Sequence record: NC_028780.1
Source: Escherichia phage slur07
Reading direction: 5' to 3' (one strand)
DNA length: 64,000 nucleotides
The notes under the pieces were generated by a model that was given only the letters and a program-made list of their open reading frames with translations, searched no databases and was not told the DNA's origin. Each line of letters starts with the position of its first letter. Position 1 is the stretch's first letter. This document shows positions 577 to 63,287 of the stretch, in pieces. A program made the translations under genes and the position numbers.

Positions 577-885
577 ATGAAACTGACAACTGAGCAGAAA
601 GTAGCAATTCGTGAAATTTTGAAAACTAAACTGTCCATGGGTGTTTCAAACGTAGTTTTTGAAAAGTCTGATGGTACTATTCGTACTATGAAAGGTACTC
701 GTGATGCAGACTTTATGCCAACCATGCAAACTGGTAAATTGACTGAATCTACTCGGAAAGAATCTACTGACATGATTCCAGTATTTGATGTTGAACTTGG
801 TGCATGGCGAGGTTTTTCTATTGACAAATTGATTTCCGTTAATGGTATGAAAGTTGAGCATTTACTCCAATTTATTGGTAAATAA
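577..885 (+). CDS. hypothetical protein (102 aa)
   Basis: ORF immediately after previous stop; no recognisable motif. Confidence 0.5.
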   Translation: MKLTTEQKVAIREILKTKLSMGVSNVVFEKSDGTIRTMKGTRDADFMPTMQTGKLTESTRKESTDMIPVFDVELGAWRGFSIDKLISVNGMKVEHLLQFIGK

Positions 886-887
886 AT

Positions 888-918
888 GCTTTAAGAATTA
901 TTTGTTATTATTAATTCA
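888..918 (+). promoter_or_regulatory. candidate MotA-dependent middle promoter (TGCTTTA box, ~12 nt spacer, TATTAT) upstream of gene 31
   Basis: MotA-box-like TGCTTTA followed by -10-like TATTAT; same 31 nt recurs exactly at 60751-60781. Confidence 0.4.
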
Positions 919-941: not shown

Positions 942-1277
942 ATGTCTGAAGTACAACAGCTACCAATTCGTGCTGTCGGTGAATATGTTATTTTAGTTTC
1001 TGAACCTGCACAGGCTGGTGATGAAGAAGTTACAGAATCAGGACTTATTATCGGTAAACGTGTTCAAGGTGAAGTTCCTGAACTGTGTGTAGTTCACTCT
1101 GTTGGTCCTGATGTTCCTGAAGGTTTCTGCGAAGTTGGTGATTTGACTTCTCTTCCAGTTGGTCAAATTCGAAATGTTCCGCATCCTTTTGTAGCTCTGG
1201 GTCTTAAGCAGCCGAAAGAAATTAAACAAAAATTCGTTACTTGTCACTATAAAGCTATTCCGTGTCTTTATAAGTGA
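942..1277 (+). CDS. 31: gp31 co-chaperonin (GroES-like), needed for capsid protein folding
   Basis: 111 aa ORF, sequence matches recalled T4 gp31 ([22 protein letters not shown]...); between cd and rIII. Confidence 0.92.
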
Positions 1278-6968: not shown

Positions 6969-9059
6969 ATGATGGAACTCATTACAGAATTATTTGACGA
7001 AGATACTACTCTTCCGATTACAAACTTAAATCCAAAGAAGAAAATACCACAAATTTTTTCAGTTCATGTTGATGATGCAATTGAACAACCAGGCTTTCGT
7101 TTATGTACCTATACATCTGGAGGTGATACTAATCGCGATTTAAAAATGGGCGATAAAATGATGCATATCGTTCCTTTTACATTAACTGCAAAGGGGTCAA
7201 TTGCTAAATTAAAGGGTCTTGGACCGAGTCCTATTAATTACATCAATTCAGTATTTACCGTAGCAATGCAAACAATGAAACAGTATAAAATTGATGCATG
7301 TATGCTACGCATTCTTAAGTCTAAAACCGCCGGTCAAGCTCGACAAATTCAACTTATTGCTGATAGACTTATCCGTAGTCGTTCAGGTGGCAGATACGTC
7401 CTTCTTAAGGAACTCTGGGATTACGATAAAAAGTATGCATATATTCTTATACATCGTAAAAACGTATCACTAGAAGACATTCCAGGAGTTCCAGAAATTA
7501 GTACTGAACTCTTTACTAAGGTTGAATCGAAGGTCGGTGATGTTTATATCAATAAAGATACTGGAGCCCAAGTAACTAAAAATGAGGCAATTGCAGCATC
7601 AATTGCACAAGAAAATGATAAACGTTCTGACCAAGCCGTAATCGTTAAAGTTAAAATTTCCCGTAGAGCAATTGCGCAAAGTCAATCATTGGAATCTTCT
7701 AGATTTGAAAGTGAATTATTCCAGAAGTATGAATCTACCGCAGCTAATTTCAATAAACCTGCTACCGCTCCTTTAATTCCCGAAGCAGAAGAAATGAAGC
7801 TTGGAATTAATTCATTAGCTTCTAAAACTAAGGCAGCAAAAATTATTGCTGAAGGAACTGCAGATGAACTTCATTATGACTATAAATTCTTTTCAAAAAG
7901 TGAGGTTAATGAAGTTTCTGAAAAAATTAAAGATGTAATTCTTAATGCGATTAAAAATGAACCAACTACTTCAATAAAATGTTTAGAGAAATACGCAGCA
8001 GCTGTTAATCAACTCTTTGAAGAATATAAAGATAATTGGCTTGATAAACATAATAAAACTCGTAAAGGGCAGCCAGATGAAGTCTGGGAAGAAATAACTA
8101 AAAATGCCTGGAATGCAGCAAAAACTAAATTCCTCAAAAGAATGATTTATAGTTTTTCTGGAATTGGTGCAGGTCCAATGATTGATATTACTATTGCCCG
8201 TGATGGTTCTAAATATACTCCATCACAAAAGCGCGGCATTAGAGAGTATTGTGGTTCAGGATATACTGACATCAATAATCTTCTTTTAGGTCGTTACAAT
8301 CCAGAACGATATGATGTAATGAGTGAAAAAGAAATTGAATCTGCTATAAATAATTTAGATTCAGCTTTTGAAAATGGTGACCGCATACCGGAAGGCATTA
8401 CAGTTTATCGTGCTCAAAGTATGACTGCTCCTATATACGAAGCGCTAGTTAAAAATAAAGTGTTCTATTTCAGAAATTTTGTATCTACTTCTTTAACTCC
8501 TATCATTTTTGGGCGTTTTGGAATTACACATGCTGGTATTGGTCTTTTAGAACCAGAAGCTCGTAATGAATTGACAGTTGATAAAAATGAAGAAGGAATA
8601 ACTATTAATCCAAACGAAATAAGAGCGTATAAAGAAAATCCTGAATACGTTAAAGTTCAAATAGGATGGGCAATTGATGGAGCTCATAAAGTTAATGTTG
8701 TATATCCAGGAAGTCTAGGAATAGCAACAGAAGCTGAAGTTATTCTACCGCGTGGATTGATGGTCAAAGTTAATAAAATAACTGATGCTTCTAATAATGA
8801 CGGAACCACGTCTAATAATACAAAACTCATTCAAGCTGAAGTTATGACCACCGAAGAACTCACCGAATCGGTAATCTATGACGGAGACCGTTTAATGGAA
8901 ACCGGCGAAGTAGTTGCAATGACAGGTGATATAGAAGATAGAGTTGACTTTGCATCATTTGTTTCATCAAATGTTAAACAGAAAGTAGAATCATCTCTTG
9001 GAATTATTGCGTCTTGCATAGATATTACAAACATGCCTTACAAGTTCGTTCAAGGATAA
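6969..9059 (+). CDS. alt: Alt ADP-ribosyltransferase (virion-packaged, modifies host RNA polymerase)
   Basis: 696 aa; N-terminus MELITELFD... matches recalled T4 Alt; ART motifs YRAQS (R), FVSTSL (STS), TEAEVILPRG (ExE); start may be second ATG at 6972. Confidence 0.9.
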   Translation: MMELITELFDEDTTLPITNLNPKKKIPQIFSVHVDDAIEQPGFRLCTYTSGGDTNRDLKMGDKMMHIVPFTLTAKGSIAKLKGLGPSPINYINSVFTVAMQTMKQYKIDACMLRILKSKTAGQARQIQLIADRLIRSRSGGRYVLLKELWDYDKKYAYILIHRKNVSLEDIPGVPEISTELFTKVESKVGDVYINKDTGAQVTKNEAIAASIAQENDKRSDQAVIVKVKISRRAIAQSQSLESSRFESELFQKYESTAANFNKPATAPLIPEAEEMKLGINSLASKTKAAKIIAEGTADELHYDYKFFSKSEVNEVSEKIKDVILNAIKNEPTTSIKCLEKYAAAVNQLFEEYKDNWLDKHNKTRKGQPDEVWEEITKNAWNAAKTKFLKRMIYSFSGIGAGPMIDITIARDGSKYTPSQKRGIREYCGSGYTDINNLLLGRYNPERYDVMSEKEIESAINNLDSAFENGDRIPEGITVYRAQSMTAPIYEALVKNKVFYFRNFVSTSLTPIIFGRFGITHAGIGLLEPEARNELTVDKNEEGITINPNEIRAYKENPEYVKVQIGWAIDGAHKVNVVYPGSLGIATEAEVILPRGLMVKVNKITDASNNDGTTSNNTKLIQAEVMTTEELTESVIYDGDRLMETGEVVAMTGDIEDRVDFASFVSSNVKQKVESSLGIIASCIDITNMPYKFVQG

Positions 9060-9062
9060 ATC

Positions 9063-11120
9063 ATGGAACTTATTACAGAATTATTTGACGGCGCTTCGGC
9101 GCCGGTTGTTAACTTAAATCCTAAGCATAAAATACCACAAATTTTTGCTATCCAAGCCGGCGAAGAAAGCGTGCTTCCTGGATTTAGATTTTGTACATAC
9201 ACCTCTGGTGGTGATACAAATAAAAACGTTAAGCCAGGCGATAAAATGATGCATATCGTAATGATAGGTGTCAATGAGAAACTATCATTAGTTAAGCTTA
9301 AAAACTTGGGTGGAAATCCAATTGGTGTCATTAATGCCGTTTTTGATACTGCTCTTCAAACAATGAAACAGTATAAAATCGACGCATGCCTATTCCGCGT
9401 ACTAAAGAGTAAAACAAATGGCGCAGCTCGTCAAATGCAAGTTATTGCTGACCGTTTAGTACGTACTAAAGGAGCAGGTCGATATGTTCTCTTAAAGGAA
9501 ATCTGGGACTATGATAAGAAATATGCATATATTATGGTTTACCGTAAAAATGCCAATTTAGAAGACATTCCAGGTGTACCTCCTATTTCAACTGAGTTAT
9601 TCACAAAAGTTGAATCAAAGGTTGGTGATGTTTATGTAGACGTTAAAACAGGTAATGCTGTTCCTAAAGCTGTCGCTGTTGCTGCTTCTATTGCTTTAGA
9701 AAATGATAAGCGCACTGATCAAGCTGTTATTCAGAAAACTAAAATTAGTCGTCGATTAGCAGCACAAGCTCAATATTCTACTGTTGATGCTTCACTTCAG
9801 GGTGATAGCTTCGCTGCCAAGAAATATCAAGAGTTTGAATCTAAAGTTCCGGTATATAAAGCAGAAGGACCAATGAACTCTGGCGTTATCCAGATTGGTT
9901 CAAACTTCAGCAAAGGAGCTATCGGTGGTATGAGAAGTGCTTCTCGTTTTAAATCTAATGATTATGAACTAGAAAGTTTCCGAAATCATATTGCATTGAC
10001 CCATGCACGTTTACGCGATCCATCTATCAAGCTGCAGAGCGATATAACATATCAAGGTTCTCAAGAATATTTAAAGAATAAAGAATTCTTTGATTATAAA
10101 ACTGATAAAATTTTAAGCGATCTTGCTGACATTAATATTTCTAATAGCTTTGATGTTATTAAGAAAATTATCAATGATTTAGTTAAAGATTCTAAAGCTA
10201 CATCAGATGAAAAGACAGCTATTATTCAATTTGTAATGAATGGCATTTATAAATTGATTAATGAATCTGCTGCTCAGGCATATGAATACGCAAGCACCGA
10301 AGTAACTCCAAAAGGACTGACTCAGGCTGAATCTGATGTAATTGAAGATTATTGTGCAGATTCATATGTTGAAATGAACTCGTTCCTTTTGGGTAAACCA
10401 GATTCTACCCGTGAAGAATACATGGAAAGAGCTATTAATCACATCGAGACGTTAGATTCTGCCTTTGCCAAAGGATCAGTTCTTCCTCCAGGAACTACAC
10501 TTTACCGTGGACAAGAAGTTACCTTTAAAACTTTGCGTCATAACATTGAAAACAAAATGTTCTATTTCAAGAACTTCGTATCGACATCACTTAAACCAAA
10601 TATCTTCGGTGAGCATGGTAAAAACTATATGGCTCTAGATGATTCCGGCGCAGTATTTTCTGGCGAAGGAGAAGGTTCCGTTGATGCAGAAGATTTAATG
10701 CATATGGGTAGTCATTCTACATATGCCAATGAAGATGCTGAAACTAGCGTAGGTATGGTAATTAAAGGGGCTGAGCGAATCAAAGTTATCGTTCCAGGTC
10801 ATTTATCAGGATTTCCATCAGAAGCTGAAGTTATTCTACCACGTGGAATTTTACTGAAGATTAATAAAGTAAGTACGTACTTTATGAAAGAAACTGCTTA
10901 TAACAAGTATCTAATCGAAGGTACAATCGTTCCTCCTTCTGAACAATTAGAGGAATCGGTATATGATGGCGACCATTTAATGGAAACTGGTGAAGTTCGT
11001 CCAATGGCTGGATTTAATCAATTCCTTGTAGAAGAATCAAAAGAAGAGGAAAACGAAGTTTCTCAAATCTTGGCTTCTTTGGTTAACATCAACGGAATGT
11101 CTAAAAAGTTCAAAATGTAG
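9063..11120 (+). CDS. Alt-like ADP-ribosyltransferase paralog
   Basis: 685 aa, starts 3 nt after alt stop; shares MELITELFD N-terminus, QTMKQYKIDAC, and C-terminal YRGQ / FVSTSL / SEAEVILPRG motifs; central ~200 aa divergent. Confidence 0.85.
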   Translation: MELITELFDGASAPVVNLNPKHKIPQIFAIQAGEESVLPGFRFCTYTSGGDTNKNVKPGDKMMHIVMIGVNEKLSLVKLKNLGGNPIGVINAVFDTALQTMKQYKIDACLFRVLKSKTNGAARQMQVIADRLVRTKGAGRYVLLKEIWDYDKKYAYIMVYRKNANLEDIPGVPPISTELFTKVESKVGDVYVDVKTGNAVPKAVAVAASIALENDKRTDQAVIQKTKISRRLAAQAQYSTVDASLQGDSFAAKKYQEFESKVPVYKAEGPMNSGVIQIGSNFSKGAIGGMRSASRFKSNDYELESFRNHIALTHARLRDPSIKLQSDITYQGSQEYLKNKEFFDYKTDKILSDLADINISNSFDVIKKIINDLVKDSKATSDEKTAIIQFVMNGIYKLINESAAQAYEYASTEVTPKGLTQAESDVIEDYCADSYVEMNSFLLGKPDSTREEYMERAINHIETLDSAFAKGSVLPPGTTLYRGQEVTFKTLRHNIENKMFYFKNFVSTSLKPNIFGEHGKNYMALDDSGAVFSGEGEGSVDAEDLMHMGSHSTYANEDAETSVGMVIKGAERIKVIVPGHLSGFPSEAEVILPRGILLKINKVSTYFMKETAYNKYLIEGTIVPPSEQLEESVYDGDHLMETGEVRPMAGFNQFLVEESKEEENEVSQILASLVNINGMSKKFKM

Positions 11121-11180: not shown

Positions 11181-11471
11181 ATGAAATCTTCTTTACGCTT
11201 TTTAGGTCAAGAACTTGTAGTTGAAGGCGTTATTCCTGTTGATAATGCTTTTAATGAAGCAGTTTACGATGAATTTATTAAAATTTTTGGAACAGATAAA
11301 AAGTTCGGAATTTTTCCTTCTGAAAATTTTTCAAAGCCAGAACAGACTGAAAGTATTTTTCAGGGTGTAGTAACAGGTAAATTTGAGTCAGAAGCTCCGG
11401 TAAAAATTGAAGTTTATATTGAAGACAGTTTAGTTGCTTCAGTTTCTGCTTTCATTTCATTCCGTAAATAA
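11181..11471 (+). CDS. hypothetical protein (96 aa)
   Basis: ORF with GAGGAA RBS; followed by bidirectional terminator. Confidence 0.5.
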   Translation: MKSSLRFLGQELVVEGVIPVDNAFNEAVYDEFIKIFGTDKKFGIFPSENFSKPEQTESIFQGVVTGKFESEAPVKIEVYIEDSLVASVSAFISFRK

Positions 11472-18814: not shown

Positions 18815-18880
18815 TGCTTCACGTATAAACGTGGTATAATGAATCTAAGTCCATCCAATAACAATTGAATAGAGAACAAT

Positions 18881-55621: not shown

Positions 55622-56074
55622 ATGGCATATTCTGGAAAATGGGTTCCTAAAAATATATCAAAGTATAGAGGTGACCCTAAAAAAATTACGTATAGATCAA
55701 ATTGGGAAAAATTCTTTTTTGAATGGTTAGATAAAAATCCAGAAATTATTGCATGGGGTAGTGAAACAGCAGTAATTCCTTATTTTTGTAATGCAGAAGG
55801 GAAAAAACGTAGATACTTCATGGATATTTGGATGAAAGATTCTTCTGGACAAGAATTTTTTATTGAAATAAAACCTAAAAAAGAAACACAACCACCAGTT
55901 AAACCAGCACATCTAACAACCGCAGCGAAGAAAAGATTTATGAATGAAATTTATACCTGGTCTGTGAACACTGATAAATGGAAAGCAGCACAATCTTTAG
56001 CTGAAAAGCGTGGAATAAAATTTAGAATTCTAACAGAAGATGGATTACGAGCTCTTGGCTTTAAGGGGGCATAA
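55622..56074 (+). CDS. 4: head completion protein
   Basis: 150 aa, T4 gp4 size. Confidence 0.85.
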
Positions 56075-56898
56075 TGGCTATTTTTCAAATAATTAATGAA
56101 AGCACTCCCCAAGTTCCAAAGGTTAAGCAATCATTAAACGAAAAGAAATGGATTCAGATAGGTCTTGAATACAGAAAGGCCAAAGCAAAAGGAATGACAG
56201 GAAAGCAATTTGCTGAAGAAAGAGGAATCAAATACTCTACGTTTACTTCGGCAATGTCAAAATATGCTTCAGGAATTAAAACGGCTGAAAAGATTCAAAA
56301 GCTTGAATCAAAACCAATGAATAAACTCAATAAGCAAGAAAGACAACTGCTTATGATAAATTCATTCAGGCAAACATTGCGTGATAAAATTCGTAATGAA
56401 GGTGCAGCAATTAATAATAAAACCAGAAAGTGGTTTGCTGAAACTATTAAGCAAGTAAAAGGACATAAAGTTGTTCGCCCGCAGCCGGGACGAATATATG
56501 CTTTTGCTTATGATGCTAAACACAAGGAAACTCTTCCTTATTGGGATAAATTTCCTTTGATAATTTACCTTGGTTTAGGTAAGCATAATTTAATGTACGG
56601 ATTGAACTTGCACTATATTCCACCTAAAGCTCGTCAGCAATTCCTAGAAGAGCTTTTAAAGCAATATGCAAATACACCTACTATTACTAATAAAACGAAA
56701 TTAAAAATTGATTGGAGTCAAGTGAAAGGATTTAGGGGCGCAGACCAAATGATTAAGGCATATATACCTGGTAATATTATGGGTAGCCTTGTTGAAATCG
56801 CCCCGAAAGACTGGGCGAACGTTGTGTTGATGCCACTTCAGCAGTTCGTTTCAAAAGGAAAACGTTTCTCTGCAAACAAAGTCTGGTCAAATATCTAA
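56074..56898 (+). CDS. 2: DNA end protector protein
   Basis: 274 aa, T4 gp2 size; start overlaps gene 4 stop. Confidence 0.85.
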
Positions 56899-57004
56899 TT
56901 CTATTATCTTCCATTCTTTTCTGTTGTTTGTTCTAAATGGAATTGAATGGAAGGGACTTAGACCCATTATACCACCAACAGTTATAAAGCATTATGAGGA
57001 ATAT

Positions 57005-57535
57005 ATGTCGCAAGCTCTGCAACAAATTTTTAACCAAGCAAATACAACTAACTTTGTAGTATCAATACCACATAGTAATACTACATCTGCTTTTACTTTA
57101 AATGCTCAGTCAGTTCCTATTCCAGGAATTAGAATACCTGTTACTGATACTGTGACTGGGCCGTTTGGACTGGGCCGAGCACAACGTCCAGGTGTTACAT
57201 TTGAGTATGATCCACTCATTGTGAGATTTATAGTTGATGAAGAACTTAAGTCGTGGATAGGAATGTATGAATGGATGCTAGGAACTAGCAACTATCTTAC
57301 AGGTGAAAATACTGCCCAAAAAACAGGTCCTGAATACATTACGCTTTACATCTTAGATAATAGCAAAACTGAAATCGTGATGTCAATAAATTTTTATAAG
57401 CCTTGGGTTTCTGACCTATCTGAAGTAGAATTTAGCTACACAGAAGATTCAGACCCGGCTTTAGTATGTACTGCAACGATTCCTTACACATATTTTCAAG
57501 TAGAAAAAGATGGAAAAATTATAGCAGAAGTTTAA
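57005..57535 (+). CDS. 3: tail completion / sheath stabiliser protein
   Basis: ORF from 56924; start placed at Met giving recalled 176 aa of T4 gp3. Confidence 0.8.
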   Translation: MSQALQQIFNQANTTNFVVSIPHSNTTSAFTLNAQSVPIPGIRIPVTDTVTGPFGLGRAQRPGVTFEYDPLIVRFIVDEELKSWIGMYEWMLGTSNYLTGENTAQKTGPEYITLYILDNSKTEIVMSINFYKPWVSDLSEVEFSYTEDSDPALVCTATIPYTYFQVEKDGKIIAEV

Positions 57536-59016: not shown

Positions 59017-59051
59017 GTTGTTTACATGGGGTTTTAGTAGTGATACTATTA
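59017..59051 (+). promoter_or_regulatory. early promoter / stem-loop cassette (GTTTAC ... TGATACTAT within GGGTA...TACCC)
   Basis: GTTTAC -35, 17 nt spacer, extended -10; 24 nt identical to copy at 59331. Confidence 0.5.
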
Positions 59052-59067
59052 CCCTATCAAAACAAAT

Positions 59068-59319: not shown

Positions 59320-59320
59320 G

Positions 59321-59355
59321 TTTACTTTTAGATAGGGTAGTGATACTATTACCCT
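59321..59355 (+). promoter_or_regulatory. early promoter / stem-loop cassette, second copy
   Basis: GTTTAC + 17 nt + TGATACTAT; shares GTAGTGATACTATTACCCTATCAA with 59017 cassette. Confidence 0.5.
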
Positions 59356-59377
59356 ATCAACTACCGAGGAGAATAAA

Positions 59378-59947: not shown

Positions 59948-60238
59948 ATGATTCTTTATGCTAAAGTATCATCCATTGAAAATGGATATAAATATGATCA
60001 AGACGCGGCTAAAGCCTTGATTGATGATTATGGCATTTTAACATGTTTTGAAGTTGAAAAGGTTTACATTGACCGTTCATCTTCTCAGGTTAAATTAGTG
60101 AAGGAAGACCGTAAATTTAATACAGTAAATTTTGATTTCTTTATTGAAACAGAAAAAGGTCCTCTTGAATATGATATTTTCAAGAATCCTTTGGGTCTTG
60201 AATGTATTCAGAAAACGTATATTAATGCAGCGTGGTGA
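59948..60238 (+). CDS. hypothetical protein (96 aa)
   Basis: ORF in same-strand array. Confidence 0.5.
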   Translation: MILYAKVSSIENGYKYDQDAAKALIDDYGILTCFEVEKVYIDRSSSQVKLVKEDRKFNTVNFDFFIETEKGPLEYDIFKNPLGLECIQKTYINAAW

Positions 60239-60240
60239 AA

Positions 60241-60756
60241 ATGAATATTTGTTTAGGTACTACAATTCCGCAGGGTTACGTAATTGATGTCACTACCTGG
60301 GAAAATGATGGTGACAACTATAAAACTAAAACACTGTTTGGCGTAGAAGAGCATGAAATCTTACAATTCCAATATCTTTTAAAGAAGTTTAAAAGCAGAC
60401 ATTCTAGTACTAAAGCTGAACGTTATTGTGGTAATGGCTTGTTCAGCGAGCAATCGCTTTTTATTTATGAATACTTGGTTGAAGGACTGTTCTCAGAACA
60501 ACTTTATCCAGAATTCATTAAAAAGGTCTTTGACATAGAAGTTGACCTTGGTAATAAATCCGAAGAAGACGAAGAACGTGTATTTGACTTATTCTTTGTG
60601 AATGGTAATAAAGTGCTTGAAGGACTTATTAATATTTTAGGCAGTGCTTCTGAGTATTATGATTATGATTTTTTGCGTGTAGTTGAGAGTGTTAAATACT
60701 CTTATATAGAAAAAGAAATTGTTTTGCCGACCGTTAAAATGTTTAATTTGCTTTAA
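60241..60756 (+). CDS. hypothetical protein (171 aa)
   Basis: ATG 60241; track ORF begins at 60232. Confidence 0.5.
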   Translation: MNICLGTTIPQGYVIDVTTWENDGDNYKTKTLFGVEEHEILQFQYLLKKFKSRHSSTKAERYCGNGLFSEQSLFIYEYLVEGLFSEQLYPEFIKKVFDIEVDLGNKSEEDEERVFDLFFVNGNKVLEGLINILGSASEYYDYDFLRVVESVKYSYIEKEIVLPTVKMFNLL

Positions 60757-60781
60757 GAATTATTTGTTATTATTAATTCAT
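60751..60781 (+). promoter_or_regulatory. candidate MotA-dependent middle promoter for the tRNA cluster (exact repeat of 888-918)
   Basis: 31 nt identical to 888-918, TGCTTTA box and TATTAT -10. Confidence 0.4.
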
Positions 60782-60842: not shown

Positions 60843-60915
60843 TGGGAATTAGCCAAGTTGGTAAGGCACTGGATTTTGATTCCAGGATGCAAAGGTTCGA
60901 GTCCTTTATTCCCAG
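60843..60915 (+). tRNA. tRNA-Gln (anticodon UUG)
   Basis: Cloverleaf: acceptor TGGGAAT/ATTCCCA, anticodon stem CTGGA/TCCAG with loop TTTTGAT, GGTTCGAGTCC T-loop. Confidence 0.85.
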
Positions 60916-60916
60916 C

Positions 60917-61003
60917 GCGAGAATGGTCAAATTGGTAAAGGCACAGCACTTAAAATGCTGCGGAATGATTTCCTTGTGGGTTCGAGTCCCACTTCTCGCA
61001 CCA
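60917..61003 (+). tRNA. tRNA-Leu (anticodon UAA), long variable arm
   Basis: Acceptor GCGAGAA/TTCTCGC, anticodon loop CTTAAAA, T-loop GGTTCGAGTCC, encoded CCA. Confidence 0.85.
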
Positions 61004-61008
61004 AATTT

Positions 61009-61082
<74 letters not shown>

Positions 61083-61086
61083 ATTT

Positions 61087-61737
61087 ATGACTCGTCGTGA
61101 GACGCTCAGTTCTTTATTAGGGACTGATATGCATTTTTATCTTTATAAAATAACAAATAAAATTAATAATAAAATTTATATTGGTGTGCATTCTACCGAA
61201 AATTTAGATGATGGATATATGGGTTCTGGTAAATTATTAAAAAGAGCCCAAGATAAATATTGTATAGAAAATTTTTCTAAAGAAATATTAGAGTATTTTG
61301 ACGATAAAGAATCTATGCTTGAAGCCGAGAAAAATATTGTCACAGAAGAGTTTTTAAATAGACCAGATGTGTATAATTTAAAACTTGGAGGTGAAGGTGG
61401 ATGGGATCATATAAATAATTATCCTATGACAGATCAGCAACGCGAATTAATTTCATTGGGTGTTAAAAAGGCACATTCTAACGGAAAATTAAAAGGATGG
61501 TCTTCAAATGGATTAATGAAGAATGGCTTTGCTGGTAAAACTCATTCTCAAGAAGCTAAACGTAAAATAGCAAAAGCAAACGAAGCAAAAGTTTCTGCGG
61601 ATGAAAGAAAAAGAAGAATAGAAATTTCTAAATTATATGATTTTTCTAAACGTGGCGAATTGTCTAAATATGCTAAGCATATTGGCGTAAGTCATACTCA
61701 AGCAAAAAGAATTCTAAATCAAATTAACAATATATAA
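61087..61737 (+). CDS. segB: GIY-YIG homing endonuclease embedded in tRNA cluster
   Basis: ORF between tRNA-Gly and tRNA-Ser; FYLYKITNKINNKIYIGVHS GIY-YIG module and DDGYMGSGK shared with segE; start may be ATG 61129. Confidence 0.82.
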   Translation: MTRRETLSSLLGTDMHFYLYKITNKINNKIYIGVHSTENLDDGYMGSGKLLKRAQDKYCIENFSKEILEYFDDKESMLEAEKNIVTEEFLNRPDVYNLKLGGEGGWDHINNYPMTDQQRELISLGVKKAHSNGKLKGWSSNGLMKNGFAGKTHSQEAKRKIAKANEAKVSADERKRRIEISKLYDFSKRGELSKYAKHIGVSHTQAKRILNQINNI

Positions 61738-61743
61738 ATATTT

Positions 61744-61833
61744 GGAGGCGTGGCAGAGTGGTTTAATGCACCGGTCTTGAAAACCGGCAGTCGCTCCGGC
61801 GACTCATAGGTTCAAATCCTATCGCCTCCGCCA
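61744..61833 (+). tRNA. tRNA-Ser (anticodon UGA), long variable arm
   Basis: Acceptor GGAGGCG/CGCCTCC, anticodon stem CCGGT/ACCGG with loop CTTGAAA, T-loop GGTTCAAATCC, CCA. Confidence 0.85.
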
Positions 61834-61839
61834 GTTTTT

Positions 61840-61915
61840 GCTGATTTAGCTCAGTAGGTAGAGCACCTCACTTGTAATGAGGACGTCGGCGGTTCGATTC
61901 CGTCAATCAGCACCA
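61840..61915 (+). tRNA. tRNA-Thr (anticodon UGU)
   Basis: Acceptor GCTGATT/AATCAGC, anticodon loop CTTGTAA, T-loop GGTTCGATTCC, CCA. Confidence 0.85.
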
Positions 61916-61916
61916 A

Positions 61917-61991
61917 GGCCCTGTAGCTGGAAGGTTCAAGCAAGCGACTCATAATCGCCAGATGGTGGTTCAATTCCACCCAGGGCCACCA
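61917..61991 (+). tRNA. tRNA with CAU anticodon (Ile-lysidine type or Met)
   Basis: Acceptor GGCCCTG/CAGGGCC, anticodon loop CTCATAA, T-loop GGTTCAATTCC, CCA. Confidence 0.8.
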
Positions 61992-62003
61992 AATTATGAA
62001 TTA

Positions 62004-62090
62004 GGGGAGTTATCCCGTAGAGGTAGCGGTGTGGACTGTAAATTCATTGTCATTGCGACTCGGGTGGTTCGACTCCACCACTCCCCACCA
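62004..62090 (+). tRNA. tRNA-Tyr (anticodon GUA), long variable arm
   Basis: Acceptor GGGGAGT/ACTCCCC; anticodon loop CTGTAAA; variable arm GTCATTGCGAC resembles bacterial tRNA-Tyr; T-loop GGTTCGACTCC, CCA. Confidence 0.7.
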
Positions 62091-62094
62091 ATTT

Positions 62095-62169
62095 GGATGT
62101 GTAGCTCAATGGCAGAGCGATCGCCTGTTAAGCGATTGGTTATAGGTTCGAATCCTATCACGTCCGCCA
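62095..62169 (+). tRNA. tRNA-Asn (anticodon GUU)
   Basis: Acceptor GGATGTG/CACGTCC, anticodon stem ATCGC/GCGAT with loop CTGTTAA, T-loop GGTTCGAATCC, CCA. Confidence 0.75.
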
Positions 62170-62173
62170 AATA

Positions 62174-62249
62174 CGAGGCATAGCTCAGAAGGAAGAGCAA
62201 GGACCTTCTAAGTCCTGGGTCGTAGGTTCGATCCCTACTGCCTCGACCA
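62174..62249 (+). tRNA. tRNA-Arg (anticodon UCU)
   Basis: Acceptor CGAGGCA/TGCCTCG, anticodon stem AGGAC/GTCCT with loop CTTCTAA, T-loop GGTTCGATCCC, CCA. Confidence 0.85.
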
Positions 62250-62565
62250 GACAAGAAGCCGGGTCGCTACCGGCAAGTCGTCGGACTGATGTTCCCTGTT
62301 TAAGGACTGGCATTAATAAATCTTTATGTTTTGTTAATGCCCCCTTATATCACAGCAGAAACGGCGCACCGAATTATCGATTCGAGGAAATATCTTTGCC
62401 ATAAGCCGAGTAGCGTTTTTGACGGAACGTTCGGATATGGTCGAGATATGGCCTTTTAAAAATATTGAGTAGCGTCAACTACTTAATAACCGGGTTCGAA
62501 TCCCGGCGTTTCGTACAAACACTTGCCTTAGCAGGTGGAACCCCGACAAGGTTGCCGCAAGGCTT
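62250..62565 (+). ncRNA. structured non-coding region after tRNA-Arg: candidate small stable RNAs or degenerate tRNA
   Basis: No credible ORF; tRNA-like T-arm CCGGGTTCGAATCCCGG at ~62490; 8 bp inverted repeat GGCATTAA...TTAATGCC at ~62309-62341; ends at intrinsic terminator. Confidence 0.35.
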
Positions 62566-62593
62566 AGCCCCGACCGAAAGGTTGGGGCTTTTT
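62566..62593 (+). terminator. intrinsic terminator (AGCCCCGACC-GAAA-GGTTGGGGCT plus TTTT)
   Basis: 10 bp stem, tetraloop, T-run; near-identical copy at 63125. Confidence 0.75.
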
Positions 62594-62643
62594 AGTATAA
62601 ATATAGTAGTATATTAAATCCACGAATTAAAACAGGAAATAAG

Positions 62644-63117: not shown

Positions 63118-63124
63118 CATTCTT

Positions 63125-63152
63125 AGCCCCGACCAAAAGGTTGGGGCTTTTT
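63125..63152 (+). terminator. intrinsic terminator, second copy (loop AAAA)
   Basis: Same stem as 62566-62593, T-run. Confidence 0.75.
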
Positions 63153-63287
63153 GGTATCTAGGCCTTTCCGGGCCTCTCTAGGCATCATTTAGTTTATACC
63201 CTTTATAATATATTATCCTACCTTTTAATTGCCCCTCCTGACCCTAGAATTCCCTAAAACTTTTTAAAAATTTTTTCACAAAACTGT

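Follow-up and report, generated by a model that had tools for sequence, protein, structure and literature searches.

Why should two places about 60 kb apart in a phage genome carry exactly the same 31 nucleotides? The question arises from a window of 64,000 nucleotides of Escherichia phage slur07 (NC_028780.1; "the window" is this whole stretch), in which GCTTTAAGAATTATTTGTTATTATTAATTCA occurs exactly twice, both times on the plus strand, at positions 888–918 and 60750–60780. The repeat had been picked out in a first-pass annotation of the same DNA, which was right about the exact identity and about the position of copy 1, and which placed copy 2 one nucleotide too far downstream (60751–60781). 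The window belongs to a T4-like phage of the genus Tequatrovirus and runs opposite to the T4 map, as its reverse complement. Around copy 1, where genes cd, 31.2, 31.1, 31, and rIII lie, the sequence is ~96% identical to T4; the region around copy 2 is a tRNA cluster. Our analysis indicates that the two copies are, with little room for doubt, the cores of two MotA/AsiA-dependent (sigma-appropriation) middle promoters, the counterparts of P31 and PtRNA in T4 (Table 1).

The identity between the two copies reaches one further T on each side, giving a 33-nt block, TGCTTTAAGAATTATTTGTTATTATTAATTCAT. No other exact dispersed repeat in the window is as long, and the next exact one on the list measures 21 nt. 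The edges of this block are sharp, with identity dropping to background just outside it: between the copies, the 40 nt on the two sides of the block are only 30% and 22.5% identical. Based on base composition, the number of exact 33-mer pairs expected by chance in 64 kb is ~3e-10, and none of 100 dinucleotide-preserving shuffles contained a match, even when up to three mismatches were allowed.

Both copies display the architecture of a T4 middle promoter, which consists of a MotA box with the consensus (a/t)(a/t)(a/t)TGCTTtA, centered near −30, and a TAtaaT hexamer 12 ± 1 bp from it, often with a TGn (PMC2988021). The MotA box is represented by AAATGCTTTA at 884–893 in copy 1 and by ATTTGCTTTA at 60746–60755 in copy 2, each at −34 to −25 from the start site transferred from T4 (see below). 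The hexamer TATTAT, preceded by TGt, lies exactly 12 bp past TGCTTTA in both copies, in agreement with the published consensus and with the earlier proposal that TGCTTTA, a gap of some 12 nt, and TATTAT fit a middle promoter. In both copies, the −10 element is TATTAT rather than TATAAT; it matches the consensus −10 at five of six positions, including the T at −12, the A at −11, and the T at −7. The hexamer spans −12 to −7 and is followed by TAATTC and then by the A at +1. A consensus scan of the plus strand for −35/−10 sigma-70 promoters called none at either copy, as expected for the middle class. Some initiation independent of MotA could occur through the TGn extended −10.

Transcription start sites for the T4 counterparts are available from the table of identified T4 middle promoters, which includes P31 (start site 131540) and PtRNAE, also named PtRNAsc1 (start site 72593) (PMC2988021). 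The P31 site is credited there to Nivinskas, Raudonikene, and Guild (1989) and the PtRNAE/PtRNAsc1 site to Guild et al. (1988), both as cited in PMC2988021. A newer genome-wide map of T4 start sites was looked for, as were data on P31 transcription in PMC9409239, and neither yielded anything useful. Both tabulated start sites map to the A of an AATTCAT or AACTCAT sequence, and this A corresponds to the final base of the 31-mer. Hence, the 33-nt block extends from −31 to +2, which marks it as a promoter element acting at the level of DNA. Since the identity stops at +2, there is nothing common at the level of RNA, the two transcripts sharing their first two bases only. We therefore rejected a shared RNA element, be it a leader, a ribosome-binding site, or a processing site.

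The correspondence with T4 holds at each site separately. T4 P31 occupies the same place between genes 31.1 and 31, has the same start base, and is identical to copy 1 at 32 of 33 positions, the exception being a C at −20 where copy 1 has T. T4 PtRNA lies ~60 nt upstream of tRNA-Gln, again with the same start base and 32/33 identity, here to copy 2, from which it differs by a C in place of T at −3. The two settings differ upstream of this second promoter, where T4 has trna.2 and the window adds an ORF of 174 amino acids (aa) with its stop codon inside the promoter. Annotations of related sequences point the same way: in the original GenBank entry for the T4 tRNA region (X03016), the element at the tRNA site is annotated, with its boxes, as putative middle promoter PM2, and the record of phage Lutter has a promoter annotated at the gene 31 site. 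The suggestion that a middle promoter precedes gene 31 and a second expressed unit, which we identify as the tRNA cluster, thus appears well founded in that it matches the mapped T4 promoters P31 and PtRNA.

Table 1. Features of the two promoter copies and their surroundings, in window coordinates
Feature	Position	Strand	Remarks
Gene 31.1 homolog (WYL_2 / SH3-like)	577..885	+	ends just before copy 1
Copy 1: gene 31 middle promoter core, counterpart of T4 P31	887..919	+	−31 to +2
MotA box core TGCTTTA, copy 1	887..893	+	−31 to −25; AAA before it at 884–886
TGt extended −10 (903–905) and −10 hexamer TATTAT (906–911), copy 1	903..911	+	
Predicted start (+1 A), gene 31	918	+	transferred from T4 131540; 24-nt leader to ATG at 942
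Gene 31 (GroES-like co-chaperonin, Cpn10)	942..1277	+	unit predicted to be driven by copy 1
174-aa ORF	60232..60756	+	stop codon 60754–60756 inside copy 2
Copy 2: tRNA-cluster middle promoter core, counterpart of T4 PtRNAE/PtRNAsc1/PM2	60749..60781	+	−31 to +2
MotA box core TGCTTTA, copy 2	60749..60755	+	ATT before it
TGt and −10 hexamer TATTAT, copy 2	60765..60773	+	
Predicted start (+1 A), tRNA precursor	60780	+	transferred from T4 72593; 63-nt leader to tRNA-Gln at 60843
tRNA cluster, predicted to be driven by copy 2	60843..62249	+	Gln, Leu, Gly, GIY-YIG ORF, Ser, Thr, Met, Tyr, Asn, Arg

The immediate surroundings of the two copies are not equivalent. Both had been described as overlapping the stop codon of a small ORF; this is true of copy 2, with the stop codon of the 174-aa ORF, whereas copy 1 begins 2–3 nt past the stop of the gene 31.1 homolog. 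The 174-aa ORF, for which a Pfam search gave no match, sits between the trna.2 homolog (59948–60238) and the tRNA promoter. It is present in AR1, KIT03, and HX01 (Mosigvirus) and absent from T4, RB14, and many other genomes, and in the genomes without it, homology to the window restarts at ~60734–60737, ~14 nt upstream of the MotA box. Short similar motifs, TGGTGAAAATG and AAAATGTTTAAT, are present where trna.2 and the 174-aa ORF end, a similarity that would suit a microhomology deletion.

Further downstream, the tRNA cluster differs from that of T4 in having tRNAs for Met, Tyr, and Asn and in being without Pro and Ile. An ORF resembling GIY-YIG/NUMOD3 homing endonucleases (61087–61737; annotated segD in AR1) lies between tRNA-Gly and tRNA-Ser; T4 instead has segB between tRNA-Ile and tRNA-Arg. 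Beyond the cluster, two terminator-like copies of 36 nt at 62563–62598 and 63122–63157 are 94% identical and 559 nt apart, each consisting of a GC-rich hairpin followed by a T run (CTTAGCCCCGACCGAAAGGTTGGGGCTTTTT), and a related family of hairpins, GGGACCGAAAGGTCCC, is found at 11469, 25607, and 26965. Elsewhere in the window, several collinear direct repeats, 70–78% identical and at a constant spacing of ~2.09 kb, connect 7014–9221 with 8449–11011; at the sequence level, they indicate two tandem paralogous genes.

A short regulatory sequence repeated at the boundary of a variable module is reminiscent of the PeSLs (promoter-early stem-loops) of T4-type phages (Arbiol et al. 2010, PMC2839356). 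In these cassettes, a strong early promoter of sigma-70-like type is coupled to a terminator stem-loop; they are numerous and recombine with nearby copies (PMC2839356). The likeness extends to the ORF indel, which ends ~14 nt upstream of copy 2. The element in the window differs in being a middle promoter present only twice per genome, with its copies 60 kb apart. A terminator-like stem-loop adjoining either copy was looked for and none was called, and with neither a −35 element nor such a hairpin beside the copies, we rejected their identity as PeSL cassettes.

If the copies are middle promoters, then does the middle-promoter consensus account for their similarity? When aligned on the −10 element, P31 and PtRNA share 34 of 40 positions, whereas for 152 other pairings of MotA-type candidates from the window the mean is 15.4 and the maximum 27. 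As the pair lies well above this maximum, the two promoters would be related by descent or conversion and not by consensus alone; at the sequence level, this argues for shared descent. The other middle-promoter candidates in the window have nothing beyond the consensus elements in common, with TATAAT and unrelated spacers. Promoters of the PuvsY (18815 in the window) and PuvsX type resemble the pair in having a MotA box near −30, a −10 element 11–13 bp downstream, often a TGn, and no −35; the pair is set apart from them by its TATTAT, its 12-bp spacer, and the extension AAGAA...TATTATTAAT.

The runner-up among these comparisons, at 27/40, includes the known uvsY promoter at 18815. Its partner is a very good MotA-type match on the minus strand at ~56991–56955 (ATAATGCTTTA, 13 nt, TGGTATAAT), at the 5′ end of the ORF at 56924–57535 and opposite in direction to the surrounding genes. 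As a candidate promoter, it would run antisense to this ORF, in the direction of a neighboring 274-aa ORF at 56074–56898; the T4 middle-promoter table has no promoter at the equivalent T4 position (PMC2988021). A different group of repeats, GTTTACA...GTAGTGATACTATTACCCTATCAA, is found upstream of small ORFs at 59020–59060 and 59320–59360 and also at 2149, 11098, and 58998. These look like T4 early-promoter regions, to judge from their sequence, and at 72–80% identity they show the consensus-level similarity typical of promoter families, compared with 100% for the P31/PtRNA pair.

The exactness of the repeat can be placed in context by examining the same two sites in other phages. All listed Tequatrovirus records in which the match is near-full-length contain the element exactly twice per genome, and both sites carry the promoter in hundreds of Tequatrovirus genomes, in which the two copies are usually identical at 32 of 33 positions. 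(Population counts are taken from an annotated phage collection; a viral-contig collection contained the exact 31-mer in only 4 contigs.) Both copies are known in nine genomes, three of them with 33/33 identity, five with 32/33, and T4 with 31/33. The differences fall at −3. The window has T at both sites, and fPS-90 and slur11, the other two genomes with perfect identity, have C at both; G28, AR1, pSs-1, 236Ecol005PP, and ECML-134, all with 32/33 identity, have T at P31 and C at PtRNA. T4 shares this last combination and owes its lower score to the additional C at −20 in P31.

The window type of P31 is found in 459 exact-match records and the type with C at −3 in 55, whereas PtRNA with T at −3 is found in about 6 + 5 exact-match records (~11). 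Phage PhiZZ6 carries the reciprocal pair, C at P31 and T at PtRNA, such that all four combinations occur. Exact identity within a genome is the minority state, accounting for at most ~10% of records, and each of the two identical states (T/T and C/C) lies one transition away from the common T/C state. Judged from these sequences, the perfect identity seen here is one of the combinations of alleles at a single variable position. The outgroup genera have T at −3, which suggests that the T/T state of the window may be ancestral.

Outside Tequatrovirus, at least five other genera retain a common skeleton. It consists of TGCTTTA, (A/C)GAA, a variable mid-spacer, and TG(T/G)TATTATTAAT; the phages furthest removed deviate from it at one or two positions. 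At the gene 31 site, it is found in HX01 (Mosigvirus), JS98 (Dhakavirus), S16 (Gelderlandvirus), and PEi20 (Kanagawavirus); at the tRNA site, the same skeleton is shared by HX01, JD18 (Jiaodavirus), and dhaeg (Dhakavirus), the HX01 copy being 32/33 identical to the window. The middle of the spacer is the same at both sites within Tequatrovirus, and that of P31 is different in HX01, JS98, and S16, in the same gene context. Taken together, sequence comparison identifies the two promoters as one old lineage kept at both sites throughout the genus, with a related form in other genera. Enterobacter phage PG7 (NC_023561.1 77191–77523, ~155–190) has yet a third promoter-like copy of related sequence, TTGCTTAAAGATATTTTTGTTATTATAAAT, inside the tRNA cluster between tRNA-Ile and tRNA-Lys.

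Could near-identity across the genus nevertheless be kept by more than the contacts made by MotA and sigma-70, either through ectopic conversion or through a constraint on the spacer and the region from −6 to +2? We consider this improbable overall. The first of these two routes, concerted evolution through occasional ectopic gene conversion across 60 kb, would interpret T/T (the window) and C/C (fPS-90 and slur11) as converted states. It would explain why, in three of the nine genomes, the two copies agree at −3, with the change running in opposite directions, and the agreement of the Tequatrovirus mid-spacers between sites where those of P31 in HX01, JS98, and S16 differ is compatible with an older homogenization. 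However, because all four combinations are found at −3, including the C/T of PhiZZ6, and the identical states are a single transition from the majority, ongoing homogenization is not needed. Given the large majority of C at PtRNA, any T-to-C mutation at P31 yields C/C without conversion, and both minority alleles are rare relative to the common P31 type. Homologous recombination would also have only a very short tract, 33 bp, to act on. Conversion of one copy by the other is possible but not needed, and as an account of the identity we regard it as unlikely.

A longer conversion tract was also considered, as in T4-type genomes the similarity reaches another 9 nt upstream (TGGTAAATA, interrupted by a 2-nt indel). 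We judged this similarity ambiguous, because the T4-type flank is itself related to AAATGGTTGATT (KIT03), the flank of genomes with the 174-aa ORF, and because it coincides in part with the stop codons and with the A/T-rich portion of the MotA consensus.

The second route is a shared extra element, also proposed in the first-pass annotation. It would be a further functional site in the spacer or at −6 to +2, common to gene 31 and the tRNA unit, whether the binding site of another regulator or a special structural requirement. The AAGAA that follows the MotA box and TGTTATTATTAAT are indeed kept at both sites across genera (again apart from one or two substitutions in the phages furthest removed), the spacer of PtRNA hardly varies among Tequatrovirus, Mosigvirus, and Dhakavirus, and the other candidates in the window, with their TATAAT hexamers, have unrelated spacers. 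On the other hand, the limits of the block, −31 and +2, are those of the core promoter itself. The divergent P31 mid-spacers of HX01, JS98, and S16 show that this part is dispensable, which speaks against an extra element being required. Besides the promoter elements, no repeat, palindrome, or known motif was seen in the block, and the review of T4 prereplicative transcription describes no such factor (PMC2988021). We therefore consider an extra element quite improbable.

Recent duplication, by which one promoter was lately copied to the other site in this lineage, was the other explanation first offered for the exact identity, and it would account naturally for 33/33 matches that fall off sharply at both edges. 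It is very hard to reconcile with the occupation of both sites, two per genome, in hundreds of Tequatrovirus genomes, with the usual state of 32/33, with a related promoter at both sites in other genera, or with the T at −3 in the outgroups, which would make T/T the possible ancestral state; we consider it highly improbable. Least credible of all is that the similarity arose by chance or reflects an ordinary sigma-70 early promoter, since, although the region is rich in A and T and the host polymerase could use TGt-TATTAT as an extended −10, the chance expectation and the shuffles speak against the former, and the lack of a −35 element at either copy and the tabulation of the T4 counterparts as middle rather than early (PMC2988021) against the latter.

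We return to the reading of the two copies as conserved middle promoters. By analogy with T4 (PMC2988021), AsiA would act a few minutes after infection to remodel host sigma-70 at its region 4, and MotA would bind the TGCTTTA box near −30 together with the C terminus of sigma-70, replacing the −35 contact. Region 2 of sigma-70 would then read TGt-TATTAT, with transcription predicted to begin at the A seven bases downstream, at 918 and 60780, so that transcription of gene 31 and the tRNA precursor would start in the middle period. The genes motA and asiA lie beyond the 64-kb window (T4 positions 160.9 and 163 kb), and we infer that both proteins are present in this phage. A search for MotA matched 1140 phage records, of which 492 show ≥95% identity, including the close relatives JLBYU24, AR1, and RB27 at ~97% identity, and MotA is also encoded by the other genera with the promoter pair.

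The feature is already known in the form of two mapped T4 middle promoters, and it is real but ordinary. Beyond annotation, its import is small: it provides two confident calls of a middle promoter and its start site (918 and 60780) for a T4-like genome, and it illustrates that a striking exact repeat can be simply a conserved pair of related promoters. Should more than MotA and sigma-70 contacts maintain the near-identity after all, the pair would lend itself as a natural reporter of ectopic conversion over short tracts or of the influence of the spacer on sigma appropriation. For the family as a whole, P31 and PtRNA represent a distinct old sub-type of MotA promoter (AAGAA...TGTTATTATTAAT) that has been kept across several genera of T4-like phages, and this sub-type could serve the study of how spacer and discriminator affect sigma appropriation.
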